A stretch of 64,000 nt of DNA from Dictyostelium discoideum. Its lineage: Eukaryota. Below the pieces are notes generated by a model that did not search any database, was not told the origin of the DNA, and saw only the letters and a program-made list of their open reading frames with translations. Within the stretch, counting starts at the first letter, position 1, and every line of letters begins with the position of its first letter. The stretch lies in NCBI GenBank assembly GCA_000004695.1, contig CM000152.2, positions 2,592,001 to 2,656,000 on the forward strand, read 5' to 3'. Below, piece after piece: positions 4,683 to 53,863 of this stretch. The position numbers and the translations under genes are program-made.

Positions 4683-4729
<47 letters not shown>

Positions 4730-5278
4730 TGGTTCCTAACATTTAAAATTTTTTTTTTTATATTTATTATTTAGTTATTATTATTAATTATTACAATTTT
4801 AATATTTATTTATAAATATCAATTGGCTGTAAATGAAATTAATAGATTATTAAAAGTTGTAAAGAATAATACTGGTGGTACAATTAATAATGAAAATAAT
4901 AATATTGGTGATGAAGAAATTGAATTGAAATTAAAAAGAATTTATATATTATCATTTATTAGTGTAAATTTCTTTGCAGTAGTTTGGGCAAGAGGATTAT
5001 ATACACCATTTATGTGTTGGTATTTCTATACACTACCAATCATATTGTATTTCGCTAAATTCTCTTATACTTTTATTGTATTATTTTGGTTAGCTCACGA
5101 AATACTATTTAGATTCTTTAAAGATTTCTATATTGAAATGTTGGGTACATTTATATTCTTAAATATAAATCTTTTAATTTTAATTAGATTATATAATAAT
5201 TTCAATTTTACAACTTCAACAAAATCTACAATTCCAAGAATAAAAACAAAAACTCAACAAAAAATCAAAACACAATAA
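3261..5278 (+). CDS. alg3: ALG3 (dolichyl-P-Man:Man5GlcNAc2-PP-dolichol alpha-1,3-mannosyltransferase) core. Exons are 3261(or earlier)..4198, 4356..4656 and 4775..5278.
   Basis: Three translated segments match conserved ALG3 blocks: AYTNDWPAH....YPAGFLYLYTLLYY / VLPILSNRLHLYNVRVVINDFPSTF; (R)FKLFSTLFSIIVSLKLNTIFHSPAILF...LVGLPFLMVNPVAYFTNAYDFSRTLLWEKTRNFKF; and ...AVVWARGLYTPFMCWYFYTLPIILYF...IRLY. These correspond to yeast/human ALG3 YPAGHVYIYSILYY, LLILSKRLHSIFVLRLFND, SVKMSSLLYVPAY...AFDFGRAFDYKWTVNWRF. Splice phases were checked: donor AG|GTAAAT at 4198/4199 (phase 2) joins acceptor TTAG| at 4355 to give codon AGA; donor TTG|GTAATT at 4656/4657 (phase 0) joins acceptor TTTAG| at 4774. 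The intron 4199..4355 is almost pure (TTA)n. Confidence 0.85.
4210..4300. repeat. (TTA)n microsatellite forming most of the alg3 intron.
   Basis: Direct reading of ttattattatt... between donor 4199 and acceptor 4355. Confidence 0.9.
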
Positions 5279-6392: not shown

Positions 6393-6965
6393 GTAATAAT
6401 AATAATAGTAATAATAATAATAATAATAATTACCTGTTTTCTTTGCATTTGTTTTCATACTAACAACATCAGAACCAGCATTTGGTTCAGACATAGCGAG
6501 AGCACCAACAAAATCACCACTAATTAATTTTGGAAGATATTTATCTTTTTGAGCTTCATTTGCATTTCTAGTGATTTGATTGATACAAAGATTTGAATGG
6601 GCACCATAAGAGAGAGCGACTGAGGCTGATGCTCTTGATAATTCTTCCATTGCAATACAATGAGCGGTATAACCTAAATCTAAACCACCATATTTAGATG
6701 GTGCTGTAATACCTAATAAACCTAAATCACCCATTTTCTTCCACATTTCATTTGGGAATAAATTGTTTTTGTCAACATCAGCTGCGATTGGTGCTAATTC
6801 GTTTTGAGCAAATTCTCTAACACTTTCTTGTAATTGTAATAAGGTTTCATCAAATCCATTAATATCTCTACCTGTAAAAATGGAACGAGAAATAATATTT
6901 TTATTGCTTGATGAACTTTTAATAAATCCTAAAATATTACTTGATTTTTTTAATGATCTAAACAT
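5532..6965 (-). CDS. ivdA: Mitochondrial isovaleryl-CoA dehydrogenase (acyl-CoA dehydrogenase family). There are 2 exons: 6434..6965 and 5532..~6247. The intron (~6248..6433) is (AAT)n and poly-A.
   Basis: The translation aligns end to end with IVD: [141 protein letters not shown]. The true ATG is at minus 6965 (AATAAAATG); the track's upstream TTG start is spurious. The donor (minus) CAG|GTAATT maps to plus 6433/6434, and the acceptor to AAAAAG| at plus ~6248. The track ORF reads through the intron as polyY. Confidence 0.92.
6305..6425. repeat. (AAT)n microsatellite, ~40 units, forming most of the IVD intron.
   Basis: Direct reading: aataataat...; read-through on the minus strand gives the polyY stretch in the track ORF. 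Confidence 0.9.
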
Positions 6966-21813: not shown

Positions 21814-24800
21814 ATGGGATCCCAAAAGATTTTCTTGATTTTGTTTACAATTTTATTGTGTTTGAGAACTATAAAATCTATTTCAGTTGAAGAATGTAAT
21901 TATTTTTTTTTTTAATATTTAAAAAAAAAAAGGAGTTATAAATATTAATATTATGTTTAGCAAATTGTATTAGTTTTTTAGCCAACCAACTTGGAATAAA
22001 TTTTTTTACCTCAATAAATTCTTCAAGCCAAATTCAATATTGTTATTATACATCTTATATTACATGTGACTCTAATGAGAGTATAACTGAATTAAATCTA
22101 TCTCAAAATTCATCTTCTAATATAATAGGTTCAGACCTATTTTTATGTTTTCCAAATTTAAATTCATTGTTTGTATTTATTTTTTATTTTTAATTTTATT
22201 TTTATTTTTTATTTTTATTTTTATTTTTTATTTTTATTTTTTTTTTATTTTTGCTTTTTTTTATTTTTTTTTTTTATCTTTTATCAATTTATTAATTTTG
22301 TGTTTTCAAATAGATATCTTAAAAAAGTAATACTCAATAGTGATATTTTATATACATTACCTTCAACTGTAAAGAAATTACATTTGGAAAGATGCACTGG
22401 TTTAACCAATGTAACTCAAAAATTACCGCCATATGATTATTTGTATGTATTGTTGAAAAAATAAAAAAAAAAAAAAGAAAAAGTGTTTTTTTTTACTAAT
22501 TATTTAAATATTAGAGAGATAATTACCTTTTCATCAGATACTTTCATATTTTATATGTCATGGATTCAAAATATTAAAGAGTTTTATTTTTATAATGTTG
22601 AATTTCCATATACTTTAAATACAACTTTTGTTACAGATTTTGAAAATATTGAAAATTATACCAGACTAGATTACATGGGCTTCTCAACAAATGAAATACC
22701 TGATCTTACTGGTTTTTCATGTGGTGTGTAAGTAAACAAATTATTTAATAAATAAAAATAATAATAGTTTGTTATTGATAAAAATAATAATAATAATAAA
22801 AATAAAAATATAGTGATATGCTTTTAGGTTTTGCTTTTAAAAGTTCATTTGAAAAATTATTAACATTTAGTGGTGTTAAAGATATGATGATTTGGTACTA
22901 TACAAGACCAATAGATATACCAACACAATTATTACAATTAAGTGGAATGCAAAATTTGTAAGTTGTAACTATATTTTCTAAAATTTAACAATAATAATTT
23001 AAAATTTTACTGATTCTTTTTAATGATAAAGGCAAATTAATATAAATTTTAAAGTACCATCTTATCAATATGATTTCTCAAATTTAACATCATTATCAAT
23101 GCTTCAACTTATGGATAAATCAACCAATACAAATAACTTGGGAAGAAATGGTTTACCAATTTCAAAATTACCACCAAATTTAAAAGAATTTTATTATGCA
23201 GGAATTTTAAAGAAATCACCATCAATGGAAATTTTTAAAGATGTTAAAATTGTTGATTTCTCATTATGTGAAATAAATGATACATTAAAAGATGTTTTCT
23301 TACCAACAACTTATTCAACAAATAATTTGTAACTATTTTCATTCATTAAATTATTTTTTACTTTTATTTTTTTTTAAACAGTTACTAATAGTTGTTTTTA
23401 TTTTTATATATATTATATTAATAGATATTTTGAAAACAATAAATTATATGGTTTAATTCCTCAATCATACTGTAATGTAATTACAGATTTTAGCGATAAT
23501 ACTTTAACTGGTGAAATTCCAAAGTAATTATTTTCTTTTTTATAAAAAATATTAGAATTAATTTATATATAGAAAAAAAAAAAAAAAAAAACTAACAATT
23601 TTTTAAAATAATTATAGTTGTTTCACGTGTTATTTTAATGATACTGATTCTTTAGTGAAAAATAAATTTGCAAATAATAAATTCACAAATTATGCGACCC
23701 AAGGTCCTTGTAGTATGTATTTTTAAAATATAATAATTTTTAAAATTTTAATTTTATATATATACTAACTATAATTTAATTTTTAGCAACAATGAAACCA
23801 AATTTATTAGTTAATGCTACAACTTTAATATTATATGGTGAATCTTTAGGTTTTAATGGTAGACTTATAAAAACAAATGCAACAGGTTCAACAACTTTTA
23901 CAATGATACAACCAAGTAGTTATTTTACATTAAATTTAAGAACAACAAATATATTTGCAAAAGGTGCAAGATCATTAATACTCACTTGGACAGTTGGTAG
24001 CGAAATTAGAAAATTCACATTACCAATTGTTAAACAAGCACCTGTACCTGCAAATATTACTTACAGTGGTATTGCATCGAATCAAGTCGAAATAAATGGT
24101 GAATTCTTTACATACAACATTACAGATGTTTCGGTTTTAGTAAGTGGTAATGATTGTCTTGTAACTTATACAACATTCAACCAAATCAAATGTACATTAA
24201 CAAAAGGTTTAAATGAAAGTATTGTATTACCAGTTGATTTTATTTTTGTTGACATTATTGTAGGTGGAAACAAAACAAGTGTTTATGTTAGATTACAAGA
24301 AACATCATATATAAACAATAAAAAGTGTAACCCTGAACTATGTACTTCCAATACATATTGTAATTTAAATGATGGAATTTGCTATCCACATTTAGATTGT
24401 ATTTCAGATTGTACAATAAACAATGCAGTTTGTAATCATGTTAGTGGGTTGTGTGATTGTAGGAATAATTGTAGTAATGCAGGTTTATGCAATGGTGTAG
24501 ATGGTACTTGTTCGTGTAATTCTGGTAGATTATTCAACGATTGCAGTGGTATTCAATGTACAGGTACACCAATTTGTTCAAATCATGGTACTTGTGATAC
24601 CTCAAACGGAAAATGTAAATGTGAATCAATTATATGGGTTGGCAATGCATGTCAAGATACTCAACATTATGTAAATGCAATTACACCATCAAATGAAAAT
24701 GGTGGTAAAGTTTTATTATTTGGTTGGTTTGGTTCAACTCATTCAAATGCATCAGTAATAATTGGCTCACAAGAATGTAATATAACTTCAATAAATCAAA

Positions 24801-26034
24801 CTGTAATAGAATGTGATATTGGTCATGGAAAAGGAATAGTACCAACATATGTTTCCCAAAATTCTTTGGAGTGGTCAAGTCAGACAATGTATAAATATTT
24901 ATCAATACAATTGAAATGTCCAAATGATTGTACAAGTAATTTAAATGGTAATTGTGATACAACTAAAGGTGTTTGTGTTTGTATTGGTAACTTTACAGGT
25001 ATTGATTGTGGTTCATATCCAACTAGTAATCCATCAGATGGAAGTGGAAGTGGACCAAAAACAAATACAACAGTGGATGATAATACTGGTAGTGGTTCAA
25101 TTAACAATGGTAATGTAGATTACCAAGTATCAATCACTTCACTATTAGAAATTGGATTTGATGGTAGCACAATTAAAGAATACAACCTAACTAAATTATG
25201 GGAAAAGCCAAGCAATATTAACAATCCAAACCCTAATATACATACTTTTACACAAACAATTGAAGGTAATTGTACAATCACTTCAACAATTGAAGAAGTT
25301 TCAAAAGATAAAGAATTTTCATTTGCTGGTATTGACTTTACAGTTTCAGGAGGTTCATTAAAATTATCAGTTCAAATTTTAAATTATCCATATAGTTCAA
25401 CATTAAATACATTACAACTAAGAATGAAATCATCAGCTTTAAATTATTCAACACCAAAATGTGGTAGTACTCAAGATGATGAAAAAGTTTCAATAGATTC
25501 AAATGGATTCACAAATGAAAATGATAATTTAAACTATTTAACAATCACAAAGAATAATAGAAAACTTTATGGTCGTTTCCTTTCAAAAATGTTATCAGAT
25601 GGTAGATCAACATTTACAACAAGTAACATCATTTCAACAACTGATGTCGATGTTACTGTTGCATTAAATTTACCACATTGCGATATCTGTTTATTAGATC
25701 CTGGTAAGTTTAATTTTTATAATTGATTTTTACATTTTTTTTTTTTTTTTTTTTTTCTTTTATTCCCTCAAATAACTGACTTTTTTTTTTTTTCATTTCC
25801 AAATCAGATTTTTCAATTCTTTTAAATTCAAATGTAAAAGATAATGAAGAAACATGTGAAGATGAAACTAAAGATACAAAAATATCAACCACAACAATTA
25901 TTGCGATCTGTGTATCAGTGGGGGGTGCTGCAATTATAGGTGCTGCTGGTTATCTTTTGTATAGAAAAAAAATTGTTGAAGTTTTACCATCTTCAATGTC
26001 AAATTCAAAATTAAGAAAACTAAATGCAAAATAG
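21814..26034 (+). CDS. Type I membrane glycoprotein, copy A. Domains in order: signal peptide, plant-type LRRs (LxGxIP), an IPT-like region, EGF/tenascin-like Cys-rich repeats, a single TM segment, and a short tail. There are 10 exons: 21814..21895, 21961..22168, 22314..22442, 22515..22727, 22814..22957, 23032..23328, 23425..23523, 23618..23712, 23787..25703 and 25808..26034.
   Basis: Exon structure was derived by parallel alignment with copy B; every junction was phase-checked. The signal peptide is MGSQKIFLILFTILLCLRTIKS. LRR exons contain CFPNLNSL, YTLPSTVKKLHLERCTGLTNVTQKLPPYDYL and NKLYGLIPQSYC...NTLTGEIPK. The big exon is track ORF 23792..25726, with repeated C-x-C-x5-G-x2-C motifs (CNPELCTSNTYC...CDCRNNCSNAGLCNGVDGTCSC...CSNHGTCDTSNGKCKC). 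The last exon encodes ...TTIIAICVSVGGAAIIGAAGYLLYRKK (TM) and then a stop. The donor of intron 2 is a weak GTTTGT. Confidence 0.75.
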
Positions 26035-27585: not shown

Positions 27586-30500
27586 TTATTATTTATAGTG
27601 AAATGGTTTTAGGAAATTCTTTTCAAAGTTCATCATTAAATAATTTAACAACCTTTTCAAATGTTATTGATTTTAAGATTTGGTATTATACAAAACCTAT
27701 AGATATACCAATACAATTACTACAATTAAGTAGATTACAAAATTTGTAAGTTGTTTAGGAAAAAATAAAAAAATAAAAAAAATAATATAATTTTACTTTA
27801 CTAATAAAAAAAAAAATAATAAAAATAAAAAAAGACAAATTAATATAAATTTTAAAGTACCATCTTATCAATATGATTTCTCAAATTTAACATCATTATC
27901 AATACTTCAACTTATGGATGAATCATCAAATAATAATAACCTTGGAAGAAATGGTTTCCCAATTTCAAAATTACCACCAAACTTAAATGAATTTTATTAT
28001 GGAGGAATTTTAAAGAAATTGCCATCAATGGAAATTTTTAAAGATATTAAAATTGTTGATTTCTCATTTGGCCAAATCAATGATACATTAAAAGATGTTT
28101 TCTTACCAACAACATATGGAATTAATTATTTGTAATTATTATTTACTTATTTATTATTTATAATTTATCCTAATCATAAATTATTAATTATTATTTTTTC
28201 TTTTCTATAATATAGTTATTTTCAAAGTAATACATTATATGGTACAATACCTCAATCTTATTGTAATTTTATAACGGATTTTAGTACAAATACTTTAACT
28301 GGTGAAATTCCAAAGTAATTGTTTTTAAAAATTTAAAAAAAAAAAAAAAAAAAAAACAATATTAATATTTATTCAAACTTTTCCTTATTCTTCATTTTAT
28401 ATTTTAGTTGTTTTACCTGTTATTTTGGTGATTCTGAAATTGGTTTAAAAAATTTATTTGCAAATAATAAATTCACAAATTATGATACCCAAAACCTATG
28501 TAGTATGTTTTTTTATTAAATTAAACTTGTCTAATTTTTAACAATTATTAATTATGTATTTAATTTTTAGCGTCAATGAAACCAAATTTATTAGTTAATG
28601 CTACAACTTTAATATTATATGGTGAATCTTTAGGTTTTAATGGTAAACTTATAAAAACAAATGCAACAGGTTCGACAACTTTTACAATGATTCAACCAAG
28701 TAGTTATTTTACATTAAATTTAAGAACAACAAATATATTTGCAAAAGGTGCAAGATCATTAATACTCACTTGGACAGTTGGTAGCGAAATTAGAAAATTC
28801 ACATTACCAATTGTTAAACAAGCACCTGTACCTGCAAATATTACTTACAGTGGTATTGCATCAAATCAAGTTGAAATAAATGGTGAATTCTTTACATATA
28901 ATATTCAAGATGTTTTAGTTTTAGTTAGTGGTATTGATTGTCTTGTCACTTCAACAACATTCAACCAAATCAAATGTAAATTAACAAAAGGTTTAAATGA
29001 AAGTATTGTATTACCAGTTGATTTTATTTTTGTTGACATTATTGCAGGTGGAAACAAAACAAGTGTTTATGTTAGATTACAAGAAACATCATATATAAAC
29101 AATAAAAAGTGTAACCCTGAACTATGTACTTCCAATACATATTGTAATTTAAATGATGGAATTTGTTATCCATATTTAGATTGCTTTTCAGATTGTACAA
29201 TAAACAATGCATTTTGTAATCATGGTAATGGTTTGTGTGATTGTAGAAATAATTGTAGTAATGCAGGTTTATGCAATGGTGTAGATGGTACTTGTTCGTG
29301 TAATCCCGATAGATTATTCAACGATTGCAGTGGTATTCAATGTCCAGGTACACCAATTTGTTCAAATCATGGTACTTGTGATACCTCAAATGGAAAATGT
29401 AAATGTGAATCAATTAAATGGGTTGGCAATGCATGTCAAGATACTCAACATTATGTAAATGCAATTACACCATCAAATGAAAATGGTGGTAAAGTTTTAT
29501 TATTTGGTTGGTTTGGTTCAACTCATTCAAATGCATCAGTAATAATTGGCTCACAAGAATGTAATATAACTTCAATAAATCAAACTGTAATAGAATGTGA
29601 TATTGGTCATGGAAAAGGAATAGTACCATCATATGTATATCAAAATTCTTTGGAATGGTCAAGTCAGACAATGTATAAATATTTATCAACACAATTAAAA
29701 TGTCCAAATGATTGTACAAGTAATTTAAATGGTAATTGTGATACAACAAAAGGAGTTTGTGTTTGTATTGGTAACTTTACAGGTATTGATTGTGGTTCAT
29801 ATCCAACTAGTAATCCATCAGATGGAAGTGGAAGTGGACCAAAAACAAATACAACAGTGGATGATAATACTGGTAGTGGTTCAATTAACAATGGTAATGT
29901 AGATTACCAAGTATCAATCACTTCACTATTAGAAATTGGATTTGATGGTAGCACAATTAAAGAATACAACCTAACTAAATTATGGGAAAAGCCAAGCAAT
30001 ATTAACAATCCAAACCCTAATATTCATACTTTTACACAAACAATTGAAGGTAATTGTACAATCACTTCAACAATTGAAGAAGTTTCAAAAGATAAAAAAT
30101 TTTCATTTGCTGGTATTGATTTTACAGTTTCAGGAGGTTCATTAAAATTATCAGTTCAAATTTTAAATTATCCATATAGTTCAACATTAAATACATTACA
30201 ACTAAGAATGAAATCATCAGCTTTAAATTATTCAACACCAAAATGTGGTAGTACTCAAGATGATGAAAAAGTTTCAATAGATTCAAATGGATTCACAAAT
30301 GAAAATGATAATTTAAACTATTTAACAATCACAAAGAATAATAGAAAACTTTATGGTCGTTTCCTTTCAAAAATGTTATCAGATGGTAGATCAACATTTA
30401 CAACAAGTAACATCATTTCGACAACTGATGTCGATGTTACTGTTGCATTAAATTTACCACATTGCGATATCTGTTTATTAGATCCTGGTAAGTTTAATTT

Positions 30501-30792
30501 TAATAATTGATTTTTATTCCCTCAAATAACTGACTTTTTTTTTTTATTTTTCATTTCCAAATCAGATTTTTCAATTCTTTTAAATTCAAATGTAAAAGAT
30601 AATGAAGAAACATGTGAAGATGAAACTAAAGATACAAAAATATCAACCACAACAATTATTGCGATCTGTGTATCAGTGGGGGGTGCTGCAATTATAGGTG
30701 CTGCTGGTTATCTTTTGTATAGAAAAAAGTTTGTTGAAGTTTTACCATCCTCAAAGTCAAATTCAAAATTAAAAAAACTAAATGTGAAATAA
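26546..30792 (+). CDS. Type I membrane glycoprotein, copy B, a tandem paralog of copy A. There are 10 exons: 26546..26627, 26697..26910, 26981..27109, 27219..27437, 27599..27745, 27835..28131, 28216..28314, 28408..28502, 28571..30487 and 30566..30792.
   Basis: The same exon/intron architecture and phases as copy A. The large exon (track ORF 28576..30510) is ~95% identical to A at the protein level, while the LRR exons are much more diverged. Intron 4 (27438..27598) is dominated by (ATT)n. The stop is TAA at 30790. Confidence 0.75.
27455..27595. repeat. (ATT)n microsatellite in the intron of the LRR-EGF gene, copy B.
   Basis: Direct reading; it yields the polyL stretch in the tail of track ORF 27196..27612. 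Confidence 0.9.
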
Positions 30793-31085
30793 GATTAAAA
30801 TAAAATATTATAATAAATTTAAAGACTATTACAAAAAAAGATTTACTTTTTTAACATCTCTTTTATATATCAAGGTCAGATAGGCTCATATAAGAGTGCT
30901 AAGATTTAACTAAGATTTAAAATACTTTGTTTTTCTTGTTAAGTTTTTGAATTTTTCAGAAGGGATAAGGTTAGATTGATTGTTTTTTTTTTATTTTTTG
31001 TTTAGAGGCAATCCACTTTATATTTTTGTTTGGTTAATCTTTTTAAAATGAAAAGAGCAATATTTGGTGAAAAATATCACAAATC

Positions 31086-31255
31086 GCCGCGATAGTATAG
31101 TGGTATTACTTCAGATTGGGAACCTTTGACCATAATTAAGAATTCTTTTATAGATCAAAAAAAAAATTTAGATTTAACATGCAAAGCAATATTATTATAA
31201 CTTTTTTAATTCAGGTGTGTACCCGTGAGATAGGGAATTGAACCTTTGATCAAGA
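31086..31255. pseudogene. tRNA-His-derived fragments. A plus-strand 5' half (31086..~31130, GCCGCGATAGTATAGTGGTATTACTTCAGATTGGG...) carries the same ~40-bp upstream flank as the intact gene. A minus-orientation 3'-half-like piece lies at ~31225..31255 (GGGAATTGAACCTTTGATCAAGAGGTC).
   Basis: Direct comparison shows 31047..31100 (AAAATGAAAAGAGCAAT-ATTTGGTGAAAAATATCACAAATCGCCGCGATAGTATAGTGG) matches the reverse complement of 31331..31390, which is the intact tRNA-His 5' end plus its upstream flank. The fragment lacks a T arm and cannot fold as a tRNA. Confidence 0.5.
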
Positions 31256-31273
31256 GGTCAAATTTTTAAAAAG

Positions 31274-31344
31274 TGCCGCGACCTGGAATCGAACCAGGGT
31301 CAACAGAGCCACAATCTGATGTACTACCACTATACTATCACGGC
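31274..31344 (-). tRNA. tRNA-His (anticodon GUG).
   Basis: The minus-strand sequence GCCGTGATAGTATAGTGGTAGTACATCAGATTGTGGCTCTGTTGACCCTGGTTCGATTCCAGGTCGCGGCA folds as a cloverleaf. It has a 7-bp acceptor stem (one G-U), a D arm, an anticodon loop CAGATTGTGGCT with GTG at positions 34-36, and a T arm GGTTCGATTCC. Confidence 0.85.
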
Positions 31345-31694
31345 AATTTGTGATATTTTTCATTTTAAATTGCTCTTCCCCATTTTCTTAATTAAAAAGA
31401 TTAAACGGCCATGGTGTGTCGGTTTGTAAATATTTAAAAAGATCAGATTTTAATTTCATCAAATTTATTATAATAAATGAGATTTATCTCAAGAAGCTAA
31501 TAATTGCATTATTCCTTTCAAAAGAAAATCGGGTTTTAATTTTTAAAATTGTTTAAAGTGAAAAAAACATCTTAATAATCTGAAAGGTGAAAGAAATAAA
31601 AGGAATTTAAAAAATAAAAGTTATTAAAGTTATGGTTATTTGTTGGAAAAAAAAATGAAAAAACTTAATCGCAAATATTTTATTATATATTAAT

Positions 31695-32706
31695 TTAATA
31701 TCTTAAGTAAGCAGCGCCTGAGCTTGAGCCTGAACCTGAACCTGAACCTGAACCGGTACCAGTCATTTGACCAGTAACGGATGGACCGCTGGTGACGGTG
31801 AAGTTAGCGTAGACAGAGTTAAAGGTGACACTGTGTTTGGCACCACAACTACCTTCACAGATCATTAATTGAACTTGGTAAACACCAGCTGGGAATTGTT
31901 CATCTTCAGATGGGGTGGCGGCGAATGAAAAACTAGTTGAGTATTGACCTGGTTGAGTGTTGACAATTAATTGAGCATCACCAAAACCATTTGAACCAGT
32001 TGGGTCAGTTACCATAACAGCAACTTCACCAGTACCGAGAGTTGATTCAACTTTGTAAGCAACACCAATGGTGAAAGTGGTACCGTGTGGACCAGAAGCT
32101 GGTGAAACATCGCTAGTTAAAACAGTGGCATTACTATTTTGATTTTTTGGGCAAACAGTTAATTCTTCACAAATCCAAACTGGATCAGCATCTTCACCAA
32201 TGTTATTGAAAACTTTAAGGAATTCATCAATACCAACGATATCACATAAAAGATTGCAAGCACCTAAAATTAATAAAATAAAAAATAAAAAAATAAAAAA
32301 AATAAAAAAAAAGTATTAAAATTTGTTTGAAGTATTAATAGTAAAAGTAATAATAAAAATAAGATTTTTTTTTTTTTGTTTTTTTTTTTTTTCTTAAATC
32401 TTACCTTGTTCAATATTATTTGGGAGTAATGAACAAACGGCACCACATGAAGTGGCAATACCACCTGAAATAATTTTTTCTAAATCACCCATATCGTTAT
32501 TGATGAAGTCGACGCTAATTAAAAAAAATAAAAAAATAAAAAAATAATAATATTAGATATAAAATGAAATATTATTATTTTTATAATTATTTTTTTTTTA
32601 TTTCTTTTTTTCACACATACCATGTTGGACATAAACTGAATTGGAGATCAGCTTTGACTAATGAAGCAATGAATAAAATAGCAATTGTGATATATTTAAT
32701 CATCAT
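31695..32706 (-). CDS. Saposin-like (SapB-type) secreted protein with a C-terminal Thr/Gly/Ser-rich tail. There are 3 exons: 32621..32706, 32405..32514 and 31695..32263.
   Basis: Exon 1 is M(M)IKYITIAILFIASLVKADLQFSLCPT with donor TG|GTATGT. The acceptor TTAATTAG| at 32515 gives Cys (TG+C) and continues VDFINNDMGDLEKIISGGIATSCGAVCSLLPNNIEQG; the donor is G|GTAAGA. The acceptor TTTTAG| at 32264 continues ACNLLCDIVGIDEFLKVFNNIGEDADPVWICEELTVCP..., giving six or more Cys in saposin spacing. The tail GSGSGSGSGSSSGAAYLRY* could be a GPI signal. The track ORF 32270..32464 is in the wrong frame. Confidence 0.75.
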
Positions 32707-33511
32707 TTTTTATATATATATTCTCTATGTTTTTGATAAAAAATGAAAAGAAAGAAAAAAAAAAAAAAAAAAAAAAAAATGAAAAAACGATTCAAAAAAA
32801 AAAAAAAAAAAAATAATAATAATAAAAAAAAATAAAAAAAAAAATAATTAAAAATATCTTGAGGTCGATGATTTCATTCACAATTGCACAAACCCATTTT
32901 TTTAAAAATTTGTGATTTTTTTTTTTTCCAATAATTTTTTTTTTTTTTTTTCAAAACGACTAATTTTTGTATGTGATTTTTTTTTTTTAAACAACTACCT
33001 TTTTGTATGTGATTTTTTATGATTTTTTTTTTTTCACTTTTTTTTATTTATTTATTTATTTTTCATTTTCCATAGTTCACGTATAAATGTCTTTTGAAAA
33101 TTGTTTAAAAAATAAATTGAGAATAAATAGATTTTTAAAAAAAAGATTGATTAAAATTGTATCAAAAAATAATTTTTTTATTCTTATCATTTCTTTTTTT
33201 TAATTTTTTATTATTTTATTATTTTATTATTTTATTAATTTTTATTTTTGTTTCTGAATTCTAATTAAATTTTTTATTTTTTTTATGAAACAAACTGCAA
33301 GAAAAAAAAAAAAAAAAAAAAAAAAAAATTAAAAAAAAAAAAAAATTTAATGTGGTAAACAAAATTTTATTTTTAGCTTTTTTTTGAATAAATTAAGTAC
33401 TTCTTCTGATAAAATGATTAAGAATTTCAATAGAAGGGACACTGGTATTCGAAGATATTATTGTGTAGTTTTGAGAACTTGTGGTGGTCGAGGAAATTAA
33501 TTCTGGTGGGT

Positions 33512-40054: not shown

Positions 40055-40481
40055 TAGTATTTATAATTATATGAATTTAAAATTCATAATAATTAATTTA
40101 TAGATTTCAAGATTAAAGTTAAAATTAAACATTTAAGACAATATTTTTCCCCAAACAAAAATAAAATCCATTCTTTTAATTTTTTTTTTTCAAACAGCAA
40201 ATTCTGAAATTTCTTATATAATCTTTTTGAAAAATAAAAATAAATTAAAAGTTATTTATTTGTAATATATTGAGATAGGTATTTTTTTTTTTTTTGTTGT
40301 ATTTTTATTATTTTTATTTAAGTTTCAACAAATGATTTATAATTTAAAAACCAATATGGATAAAATGTTTAATTTACAATTTGTTTTTTAATTTTTCCTA
40401 AAGCTTTGAAAATACTATTTTTTTTTGAATTGGAATTGAAAATACTATCAATATCGCTATTAAAAATTAAATTTTCAACAA

Positions 40482-40553
40482 GTTTCGATAGCTCAGTGGA
40501 AGAGCAAGCGACTGCAAATCGTTAGGTCGCCAGTTCAATCCTGGTTCGGAACT
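40482..40553 (+). tRNA. tRNA-Cys (anticodon GCA).
   Basis: The sequence GTTTCGATAGCTCAGTGGAAGAGCAAGCGACTGCAAATCGTTAGGTCGCCAGTTCAATCCTGGTTCGGAAC folds as a cloverleaf. It has a 7-bp acceptor stem, D-arm GCTC/GAGC, anticodon loop CTGCAAA (GCA at 34-36), and a T-loop TTCAATC. Confidence 0.85.
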
Positions 40554-40666
40554 TTCATTTTTAATTTTTTATTTTGTTTTAAATGATTGCCCCCTCTGTT
40601 TCCTCTCGATTTATCATATTTTCATTAAAATCTGACCATATTTAAAAGAGATTCAGTCATTTTAAA

Positions 40667-40687
40667 GTAAAATTATTATAAAAAAAA
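40667..40687. repeat. 5' target-site duplication of the TRE3-type element: GTAAAATTATTATAAAAAAA(A).
   Basis: An identical 20-mer recurs at 45936..45955, immediately after the element's poly(A). Confidence 0.8.
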
Positions 40688-43600
40688 CCGTACCGCGATC
40701 AAGAGGATACAAGATAGACGTGAAAAGTAATTCATCCTTTTCTATCCTTAATCTCGGTCAATTTTAACCAATCTTTCAAAAAAAATCACCAATCCACCAC
40801 GATCTACAGATCTAACTTACCAAATCGCCGATTCAAAGGAATCCCATCGAGATGAATTCCTACGCAGACGCGGCTAAAATGGCCAACCCCTCCACCCATA
40901 TGGACGAGGCATCAGAGAACTTCATTAAGGAATTCTCCACAAAAACAGCAGAGATAAAGGAGACCTACCCCAAATTATCAATAGGCCTCAAAGACATCTC
41001 CAAATACTGCGAGACCATATTGAACATGACTGCGCTCTCAACCTACGAGAAAAACAACGGATTCTACCCAATTACACTCGAATTCCCCAAAATGGATCTC
41101 ATGGGGTTAGAAGAAATGAGAAAAACACTCTCAAACTACGATATCCCAATCGACAAGATATACATAGGCAAAGGAACTAGAAAAATGATCCACCTGATGA
41201 TTAAAAACGAACAATCTCTCCTAAATATCATTAGAGATAGAAGCAAATTGGGAACCTTCATCACCTCCAGTAGAGACTACCACGTCCTCACAGGAAGAGT
41301 AAGAATTCCAAGAGAAAAGGCAGGAATAGTGGACGCCCTCATCAAAACTGCCTTTGCAGAAGAAATACCCTATGCAATATACCATACTATATACTCCACC
41401 GACCACCTCCTAGTATTCGGTCTAATAGAATGCAAAATAGGCGATCAAATGAAATCTGGCCAACACAATACAGAAATCGCCAACTTTACCATCAGAACGG
41501 CCACCAAAACCTACTCCTCACAAAAGAAAAATAAGAAAGTAGAGTCAAACAACACGGAAGAACCATTAGAAGATGAGATGACAGATGATCCTCCCAACAC
41601 CCAAAACAGGATAGCAATCAAATCCTCTCAACCAAAACCACAACAACAAACAAACAACCCAGCAAAAAATCAGTCTGATAAACAATCAACCCAAGAGAAA
41701 AAAGCCCAATCAAAAAAGCCCTCTCAACCTCTTCCCCCCAAAAACCAAGCAGAATCTCAATCTGTCAAACCCACCACAACCACTACCACAACATCCAACG
41801 CCATCCAAAAAGACAATGCCAACAAAACGAGCACTAACATCCATTCATCCTCGGAAAACAGAGAGAAGACACCAAACATCCCTCCATCACATAAACGCAA
41901 GAACGAGGAAATCCACTCAAACAACGAGGTCACCCAACTCTCACCAACAATAAACAGAAGCAACCCTTACATCCCATCCACCCCTAAGACACCTGTCAAA
42001 AATGAAAGGAAAGGAATCATTGAGAGCTTCATAGAGAGTATCTACCCTTCACCATCCAAACCGCAGCTATACGACTCCCAAGAGGAGATCGATATCATCT
42101 CATAATGGTAGTAATCAAAATCAACCAATGGAATGTCAGAGGTTGGGGCACTGACACCTCCTTCAAAAACAAAACAGACTTTATCAAATCCCAATCCCCC
42201 CCAAACTCATTGGCACTAACCATAGTCAATGAACTCAACGCCGACGCAACACAAGCACACCAGCTATTTCCTGGCTCCATCATTAGCGCAACCAACAGAG
42301 GCAACGGAATAGGAATACTAAACCACAACAACCAAAACATAAAACTCTCACCAATATTCATAATAGAAGGTAGACTAATAATATCAGACATTCTAATAAA
42401 AGATACCACAACGAGAATCTTGGCCATATACGCCCCGGCCCAACCTGATAAAAGAAAAACACTAGCTTCAACACTAAACAAACACTTCAACAACCAATAC
42501 CACAACCTAACGTCTAACCCTAATAAAAACATCGACATCATAGCAGGCGACTTCAACTGTTTAGACTTCAATGACAATCACACATCAAATGATGACCAAG
42601 GCAACTTGACAACACAATCCCCAGATGAGATGGCCACAGTAATCGAAGCCATCAGAATTTCAAATAACCTAATGGATATGGACCAACTAAATAAAAGACC
42701 CACCTTCTCAAGAACGATACACAACACAAACAATAACCTCACAAGAATCTTGGAAAGGAGACTAGACAGAATATACCTTAACAATAGCATAATCAACTAC
42801 AGCCAATTATACTTAAGGAACCTAATCCCCCCAAAAATTAACAACATACCTCTATCAGATCACAACTTCCTATCAACCACCTTCACTCTACCCAACATAC
42901 AGATGAACATGCGCAGATGGAGATTAAAAAATCCTCAATCCTCTCAAGCATAATGCTTAAGAAAATAGACTTCCTACTTAACGATTATTCAAGGGAGTTG
43001 TCATCCAACCATAACTCTATTTCCTTCTCTCAACTCAACAGCTTACTGAACAAAATAAAACAACTATACACAGAATTTCAAAAACAAAACGACTACAACA
43101 ATAAGGCAAACATCAAAAATCTAATCTCCCTACTAGAGACAGAATTTAAAGACCAAGCCTTCGCAACCCTTTCAGCAATAAATGAATCTAAAAGAAGAGA
43201 AGAACAACTTAAACAAGAATTGAACAACTATTGCGAAGAAACCTCACTCAAGTACATCTCCGCGAGAATCAAGAAAAGACATAATGATTTCACCATCAAC
43301 GCAGTAAAAGATGCACAAGGTAGAACAATTAACAAACAGGAATTGATCGAAGAAGAATACGTAAAATATTACTCAAATCTTTATGACTACAAAGAAGATG
43401 ACCCACCATCTCATTATGAAATGTTGGAAAATTGGACAGTGACCAGGGACTCAACATGGGACAACCTTGAAAACGAATTCACATCACAAGAGATCCTAGA
43501 AGTAATAAAACAATTGAACCCACACAAATCTCCAGGCCCAGATGGAATTCCAAACTTATTCTACATAACACACAAAGAAAAACTAGCTCCAATACTGGCC

Positions 43601-49845: not shown

Positions 49846-53863
<4,018 letters not shown>

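Follow-up and report, generated by a model that had tools for sequence, protein, structure and literature searches.

A tRNA-His pseudogene fragment inverted beside an intact tRNA-His gene of Dictyostelium discoideum

Described systems around Dictyostelium tRNA genes

Closely spaced pairs of identical tRNA genes are a known feature of the Dictyostelium discoideum genome. The tRNA genes of this organism are also accompanied by external B boxes (exB), which have been placed ~41 bp downstream of 66% of them in one study (PMC3159450) and at about 80% of them in another (PMC5911963). The downstream flank is likewise a target of retroelements, the integration window of TRE3 being 40-150 bp downstream (PMC5911963). 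As regards tRNA pseudogenes, tRNAscan-SE lists only three for D. discoideum, i.e., one of Ser, one of Leu, and one undetermined (PMC13063481).

The locus described here shares features with several such systems. As in local tRNA gene duplications and pseudogenes, a DNA-level copy that includes flanking sequence lies within a few hundred bp of its parent. Compared with the D. discoideum gene pairs, however, only the 5' two-thirds of the tRNA (positions 1-47) plus flank is present here, in inverted orientation, and the arrangement is therefore not a pair. It also differs from known tRNA pseudogene fragments in that the fragments of sister lineages end at or near +47, yet occupy other places and orientations. 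Its resemblance to templated inverted insertions consists of an inverted copy of ~110 nt, a 9-nt filler, and the absence of a target-site duplication, whereas published fold-back inverted duplications (e.g., PMC3907307) exceed it by far in size, and for the present insertion such a mechanism is a proposal. Lastly, the location inside the integration windows beside a tRNA gene is shared with TRE3 and TRE5 insertions, but neither retroelement sequence, as judged against the window's own element, nor an ORF, an oligo(A) tract, or a target-site duplication is present in the inserted block.

The intact gene, its partial copy and the external B box

The analyzed stretch of AT-rich DNA (the window) is 64,000 nucleotides long and belongs to D. 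discoideum: it encodes a countin-2 product that shares 100% identity with DDB_G0279797 of D. discoideum AX4. The countin-2 gene (31706-32717, minus strand; spliced product of 254 amino acids) ends ~360 bp from the tRNA-His finding, on the opposite side of which a ComC-like gene ends near position 30803; the two genes are convergent, and the finding thus sits in the ~900-bp (902-nt) intergenic gap between them. Homology search with the ComC-like ORF retrieved paralogues only, with ~30-34% identity. Over 22.5 kb, the window agrees to 99.7% with a second D. discoideum assembly, GCA_054883475.1 (locus L001/L004), and every base of positions 30800-31720 matches in it; since this area is identical base for base, an assembly artefact is excluded.

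Two tRNA genes were found in the window by ARAGORN, namely, tRNA-His(GTG) at 31273-31344 on the minus strand and tRNA-Cys(GCA) at 40481-40554 on the plus strand. The first-pass annotation had placed an intact tRNA-His at 31274..31344 on the minus strand, which ARAGORN and Rfam both confirmed; the Rfam model RF00005 matched it in full length at 31274-31344 with 65 bits and an E-value of 1.7e-13. The internal A box lies at about 31326-31337, the internal B box, GGTTCGATTCC, at 31285-31295, and a TTTTT terminator directly 3' of the gene, at 31268-31272. With these, and with the external B box treated below, the gene carries the usual Pol III signals, i.e., A box, B box, T-run terminator, and exB, and is to be read as a functional tRNA-His(GTG) gene. 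Its sequence is identical in eight of the nine dictyostelid orthologous loci, the sole departure being one compensatory change of an acceptor-stem pair in D. dimigraforme. A 17-nt exact match to the anticodon arm was also seen at 50863-50879, with flanks devoid of similarity, and is taken as a chance match.

Next to this gene, the intergenic region contains an inverted repeat with arms of 66 nt at 31053-31118 and 31312-31377, which are 86% complementary and 193 nt apart, and which are lengthened by two more perfect 13-nt arm pairs. When gaps were allowed, 31034-31131 (+) aligned with 31404-31298 (-), a stretch that comprises ~52 nt of 5' flank followed by tRNA positions 1-47. The right arm, 31298..31404 on the minus strand, is the source-like copy, with tRNA-His positions 1-47 and ~60 nt of upstream flank. 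Within the 902-nt intergenic region, the top-scoring inverted local alignment had a score of 95, while dinucleotide shuffles of the same region gave a mean of 36.5 (sd 6.7) and a maximum of 72, none of the 300 reaching 95. These values bear out the earlier claim that a copy of the 5' half of tRNA-His, together with its upstream flank, lies on the opposite strand. The 15-mer GATAGTATAGTGGTA occurs only at the two repeat-arm sites in the 64-kb window, and no further copies of the inverted repeat block were found in the window or in 11 related loci.

The tRNA-derived part of the left arm, at 31086..31131 on the plus strand by alignment to tRNA positions 1-47, reads GCCGCGATAGTATAGTGGTATTACTTCAGATTG-GGAACCTTTGACC; it is 46 nt long and identical to tRNA-His 1-47 at 39 of 46 positions. 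The A box, TAGTATAGTGGTA, has been retained exactly, whereas the anticodon loop has suffered one deletion and several substitutions. The fragment ends at position 47, just before the T arm, and thus has no T arm, no B box (GGTTCGANTCC), and no 3' acceptor strand; the next 40 nt have no similarity to tRNA positions 48-72, scoring no better than shuffles. Preceding the fragment is the copied 5' flank, 31020..31085 (+), homologous to the flank of the intact gene at 31345-31404 (-); the homology is clear across about 52 nt, and the full copied stretch extends up to 66 nt. The distal part of this flank, gtttggttaatc, has its counterpart in the sequence upstream of the intact gene in two other D. 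discoideum genomes, '355' and '385' (gttcggttaat).

A check for two intact tRNAs at the locus returned only one: no second tRNA was found by ARAGORN in the window, nor by Rfam in 30500-32000 even at E<=10. A functional tRNA gene was accordingly rejected for the fragment, which obtained no cloverleaf call from ARAGORN or from Rfam at E<=10, has no B box, and has a broken anticodon loop. A complete gene pair of the same anticodon was also rejected, as the second copy has only positions 1-47 and a disrupted anticodon loop. TFIIIC requires a B box. We infer that the copy is a decaying pseudogene fragment without a function of its own, and regard it as dead because the B box and the 3' half of the cloverleaf are missing and the anticodon loop is disrupted. 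The fragment is probably absent from the current annotation as well, since there is no His among the three listed pseudogenes and both ARAGORN and Rfam miss it here.

A separate piece of sequence had been described as a diverged 3'-half-like piece that follows the copy in reverse orientation. This piece, GGTTCAATTCC, at 31234..31244, is on the minus strand, i.e., the strand of the intact gene, and is not part of the copy. Its core, GTTCAATTC, fits the B-box consensus GTTCRAnYC (taken from PMC3159450) and starts 30 nt past the 3' end of tRNA-His on the same strand, beyond the TTTTT terminator. A GTTCRA core is found at +29 to +34 after tRNA-His in all nine dictyostelid genomes (9/9), while the sequence around it diverges; the probability of such a match by chance is about 0.02 per genome. 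Compared with the tRNA, the piece reached a local score of 11, where shuffles averaged 7.7 and 69 of 2000 were as good; outside the B-box core the resemblance is weak, and there is no acceptor strand. Identity as a diverged tRNA 3' half was therefore rejected, the similarity being essentially that of the B box alone. Because of its strand, its downstream spacing, its fit to the consensus, and its conservation in 9/9 genomes, the piece is better explained as a putative exB of the intact tRNA-His, belonging to the promoter architecture of that gene and not to the duplicate. Thus, the picture of a palindrome of tRNA pieces was overdrawn. The concern that the similarity might be limited to the promoter boxes applies to the 3'-half-like piece, but not to the 5' copy, which reaches well past the A box into the flank.

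In consensus, strand, downstream place, and conservation at nine orthologous loci, this element is like the external B boxes of D. discoideum, although its spacing (core 30 nt after the gene) is somewhat below the quoted mean and binding by TFIIIC is a prediction. As a general caution, a sequence that looks like a B box downstream of a Dictyostelium tRNA gene should not be mistaken for the remnant of a tRNA.

Related genomes and the 121-nt insertion

The orthologous loci were reached through the 90%-identity cluster of countin-2. They comprise D. discoideum '355' (L006) and '385' (L007), two genomes of D. cf. discoideum, FIY (L012) and FIZ (L010), two loci of D. citrinum (L009, L011), and one each of D. 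dimigraforme (L008), D. firmibasis (L005), and D. purpureum (L003). The orientation of tRNA-His relative to countin-2 is constant in all loci but that of D. purpureum, where tRNA-Met is found in place of tRNA-His.

Fragments of tRNA-His were found in three neighboring lineages, in three configurations, and none in the outgroups. In the AX4 type, the fragment described above (31086-31131 of the window, plus strand; tRNA 1-47; 39/46) is downstream of the gene and inverted, so that the two are tail-to-tail. In 355 (L006:6306-6352, minus strand; 98% identity) and 385 (L007:6248-6294, minus strand; 96% identity), it is upstream and inverted, i.e., head-to-head, and likewise comprises tRNA 1-47. In FIY (L012:6260-6308, plus strand; 92% identity), it is upstream and direct, and comprises tRNA 1-49; position 49 is followed there by what appears by eye, at a rough probability, to be an in-register degenerate T arm, CCTAATTCAATTAGG. 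No fragment was present in the fetched DNA of FIZ, the two D. citrinum loci, D. dimigraforme, or D. firmibasis. Distances over the flanking sequences (1.3-2.4 kb) gave the order (AX4,(355,385)), then FIY, FIZ, and D. citrinum. A tree of countin-2 only, which placed 355 with AX4, was discarded as misleading, the larger flanking blocks showing that 355 and 385 are sisters.

The fragments of AX4, 355, and 385 all stop at tRNA position 47, and the identity of the FIY fragment drops at 47-49. The fragments of FIY, 355, and 385 have in common a G10A change in the A box, while the AX4 fragment keeps G10. The AX4 fragment is also more diverged from the gene (39/46) than are those of the other lineages (43-46 of 47). 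The flank homology of the 355/385 fragment stops near -37, and the homologous upstream site of AX4 is without the roughly 90-nt fragment arm that is present in 355 and 385. A G+C-richer patch, CGGCCATGGTGTGTCGG (31406..31422, plus strand), marks the outer edge of the flank upstream of the intact AX4 gene; its homologue in 355 and 385 directly adjoins position 47 of their upstream inverted fragment. Neither this patch nor the DNA after position 47 in AX4, 355, and 385 could be accepted as a remnant of a tRNA 3' half, the similarity to tRNA 48-72 being no better than that of shuffles. The flanks adjacent to the tRNA are 82-84% identical between AX4 and 355/385, as opposed to 91-94% for the neighboring DNA. 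The 355 locus also contains an extra insertion of ~530 nt, which produced only low-complexity matches in BLAST against the retroelement of the window.

When window positions 30940-31272 were globally aligned with the 385 locus, the whole AX4-lineage-specific insertion was defined as 31020..31140 on the plus strand. These 121 nt consist of 66 nt of flank, the 46-nt tRNA fragment, and a 9-nt filler, ATAATTAAG. In the sister genome 385, the junction is uninterrupted at the insertion point, reading CCACTTT|AATTCTTTTATAG, and BLAST confirmed collinearity on both sides (L004:4013-4566 and 4687-4911 versus L007:5957-6565 and 6565-6767). The insertion is tail-to-tail with the tRNA-His gene, copies that gene from about -66 to +47, and has its inner end 133 nt downstream of the intact tRNA, ~95 nt beyond exB. 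The same alignment revealed no target-site duplication and no poly(A) or oligo(A) tract at the junctions. The inserted block and the intergenic region, when compared with the window, matched only the tRNA-His gene itself and low-complexity runs. A MITE or other transposon with terminal inverted repeats was rejected, one arm being the conserved orthologous tRNA gene itself and no additional copies turning up in the window or the 11 related loci.

The presence of fragments in three configurations among close relatives, and their absence from five more distant genomes, mark the tRNA-His locus as a local hotspot for small duplications and rearrangements.

Origin of the fragment

The fragment probably arose in the AX4-type lineage as a local, DNA-level duplication without function, the tRNA locus concerned being unstable. 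Since 50-66 nt of non-transcribed flank were copied along with the gene, the event occurred at the level of DNA, and retroposition of a tRNA transcript is excluded. In the course of events that we propose, the adjacent tRNA-His gene would have given rise to a fresh inverted copy in the AX4 lineage, possibly accompanied by loss of an older upstream fragment. The copy would have been made by a short-range template switch, or by templated repair of a break, in which the opposite strand of the adjacent gene was copied. Such a mechanism accords with a copy that is small and inverted, that lies no more than 150-350 bp from its source, and that came with filler bases but no target-site duplication. 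As background for this mechanism only, tRNA genes are known as replication-fork pause and fragile sites in yeasts (PMC7073672). The first-pass suggestion of an inverted-duplication or repair event therefore holds in its first part, an inverted partial duplication at the DNA level being evident from the copied flank and the 121-nt lineage-specific insertion, while repair is what the features of the insertion suggest.

Several observations sit less comfortably with the proposed duplication. Apart from the 9-nt filler, neither microhomology nor any other telltale mark was established at the junctions, and no intermediate was recognized. The divergence of the AX4 fragment (39/46) is awkward for a recent event, unless intergenic DNA evolves fast. 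The G10A common to FIY, 355, and 385 suggests an older common fragment, which AX4 must then have lost. Finally, the identical +47 end, together with the absence from AX4 of exactly the upstream arm seen in 355/385, could mean relocation.

Such a relocation, which we consider unlikely, would have started from a tRNA-His duplicate, partial or full, that the ancestor of AX4, 355/385, and FIY already had upstream of the gene and that was shifted downstream in AX4, for example, by duplication and subsequent deletion of one arm of an unstable head-to-head palindrome. Its main argument is the shared +47 end, to which may be added that the ~90-nt arm of 355/385 is precisely what AX4 misses at the corresponding upstream site, and that G10A in the FIY and 355/385 fragments implies an old common origin. 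The AX4 fragment, however, is without G10A, and has ~66 nt of flank with the distal gtttggttaatc of the intact-gene type; the flank homology of the 355/385 fragment ends near -37; moreover, judging from the order of the blocks, no single inversion would turn a head-to-head or direct arrangement into that of AX4. With its G10 and its distal flank like that of the intact gene, the AX4 fragment is more readily taken as a copy of the adjacent gene than as the older upstream fragment displaced. The flank identities are uninformative on the source, all pairs being AT-rich and about 75-90% identical.

It is also possible, if rather doubtful, that partial duplications of tRNA-His arose repeatedly and independently in the sister lineages, the copied unit being defined by the Pol III pre-initiation complex. 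Each copy would then run from ~35-65 nt upstream, near the edge of the TFIIIB/Pol III footprint, to about +47, where the TFIIIC-bound B box begins, and would be made where forks stall, in the course of template switching or break repair. Two readings of the shared +47 end are possible: the fragments descend from one ancestor and were rearranged later, or the Pol III complex sets the boundary.

Improbable, by comparison, is a relic of a complete tail-to-tail pair of tRNA-His genes, one member of which lost its 3' half by deletion. In its favor, only 141 nt separate the two copies, which have both flank and gene sequence in common. Nevertheless, the insertion relative to 385 is just 121 nt and ends with +47 and the 9-nt filler, the DNA past it is collinear with the sister genome, and there is no trace of a T arm, an acceptor 3' strand, or a second exB after the fragment.

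A by-product of retrotransposition, in which a nick by the TRE3 endonuclease or an abortive integration was repaired with the neighboring tRNA gene as template, is very improbable. The position of the insertion, 133 nt after the tRNA and ~95 nt past exB, does fall inside the 40-150 bp window of TRE3 (PMC5911963). At the orthologous tRNA-His of D. firmibasis, a retroelement-like insertion is found directly after exB, and tRNA-Cys, 9 kb away, has a reverse-transcriptase element on its downstream side. However, the junctions are free of TRE-like sequence, oligo(A), and target-site duplication, and TRE3 would leave the upstream fragments in the other genomes unexplained. An actual TRE insertion or remnant was likewise rejected, there being no element-derived sequence (by comparison with the window's own element), A-tail, or target-site duplication. 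A break made by a retroelement endonuclease at the insertion point is conceivable. The element near tRNA-Cys has the same orientation as the tRNA, and its ORF2 has a reverse-transcriptase domain (E=8e-34); it is consistent with the TRE3 type as described in PMC5911963. An earlier remark had set a TRE3-type element at the next tRNA beside the tRNA-His finding; a reverse-transcriptase element is indeed present there in the TRE3 position, but no connection with the tRNA-His fragment was detectable by sequence in the window.

A functional arrangement, such as a split or permuted tRNA gene or a hairpin locus that yields small RNAs, is highly implausible: positions 31020-31410, as single-stranded DNA, fold into a long hairpin (-74.2 kcal/mol, z = -10.25), but this strong fold only restates the inverted repeat, while the fragment is without a B box and has a broken anticodon loop, the exB piece is without an acceptor strand, the T-run ends the tRNA gene immediately, and the fragment varies in place and orientation among close relatives and is absent in five genomes.

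Overall, the finding is real but ordinary, i.e., an apparently unannotated tRNA-His pseudogene fragment next to a normal gene, and no new kind of element. It is of use for annotation, and as a case of structural instability on a small scale at a Pol III gene it is both concrete and datable: copies of the 5' part of one and the same tRNA-His gene have been gained in three configurations within a few percent of sequence divergence, and the DNA that immediately flanks the gene is about twice as diverged as its surroundings. The +47 end common to the AX4 and 355/385 lineages is the one feature that deserves further attention. If the copied unit were indeed defined by the Pol III complex, the tRNA genes of Dictyostelium would bear structural mutations of a characteristic class, shaped by the footprint of that complex, for which whole genomes could be surveyed.

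The tRNA gene downstream of countin-2

Divergence is raised locally next to the Pol III-transcribed tRNA-His(GTG) gene (window 31273-31344, minus strand), the DNA directly around it (window 30804-31705) being 82-84% identical between AX4 and the genomes 355 and 385, and the neighboring genic and intergenic DNA 91-94% identical in the same comparison. In the orthologous locus of D. dimigraforme, the tRNA-His gene (L008:6503-6574) differs at two positions from all other tRNA-His genes compared; the two changes together convert the acceptor-stem wobble T5-G68 into a G5-C68 pair, a compensatory change. The tRNA that occupies the intergenic slot after countin-2 varies among species groups, and in D. 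purpureum a tRNA-Met(CAT) gene (L003:7858-7934), located downstream of the countin-2 orthologue, replaces tRNA-His.

Additional DNA beside tRNA-His in relatives

Between the external B box (exB) of the tRNA-His gene and the conserved downstream sequence, the D. discoideum-like genome 355 carries an additional insertion of ~530 nt (L006:6598-7124), which begins 79 nt past the tRNA-His gene and is absent from the sister genome 385 and from AX4. When this insertion was compared with the window by BLAST, only low-complexity matches were returned. In D. firmibasis, a CAA-repeat tract and a 394-aa open reading frame directly follow the exB of the orthologous tRNA-His in the same orientation as the tRNA gene (L005:14411-16200, equivalent to L002:10411-12176), and together look like a TRE3-like retroelement. 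It is also to be noted that ~3.4 kb of additional DNA lies between countin-2 and the tRNA-His gene in this species.

Other features of the window

The tRNA-Cys(GCA) gene (window 40481-40554, plus strand) is a member of the minority of tRNA genes that lack an exB, and no GTTCRA motif, the exB core, was found within 150 nt downstream of it (window 40555-40700); the downstream reverse-transcriptase element starts within a few hundred bp of this gene. Tandem ComC-like paralogues are also indicated in the window, because a second region (22809-26033), ~90% identical to ~3 kb of the ComC-like gene (about 27600-30800), is located just upstream of that gene in the same orientation. A 17-nt exact match to the anticodon arm of tRNA-His (AGATTGTGGCTCTGTTG; window 50863-50879), lying within coding-like sequence and flanked on neither side by further similarity, was judged a chance match.

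Possible relationship of exB to the T arm

In the FIZ genome (D. cf. discoideum), a 15-nt stretch of the exB (L010:6303-6317; TGGTTCGATTCCAGG) is identical to the T arm of the adjoining tRNA-His. This identity hints that exB elements may be derived from, or homogenized with, the T arm of their own gene.
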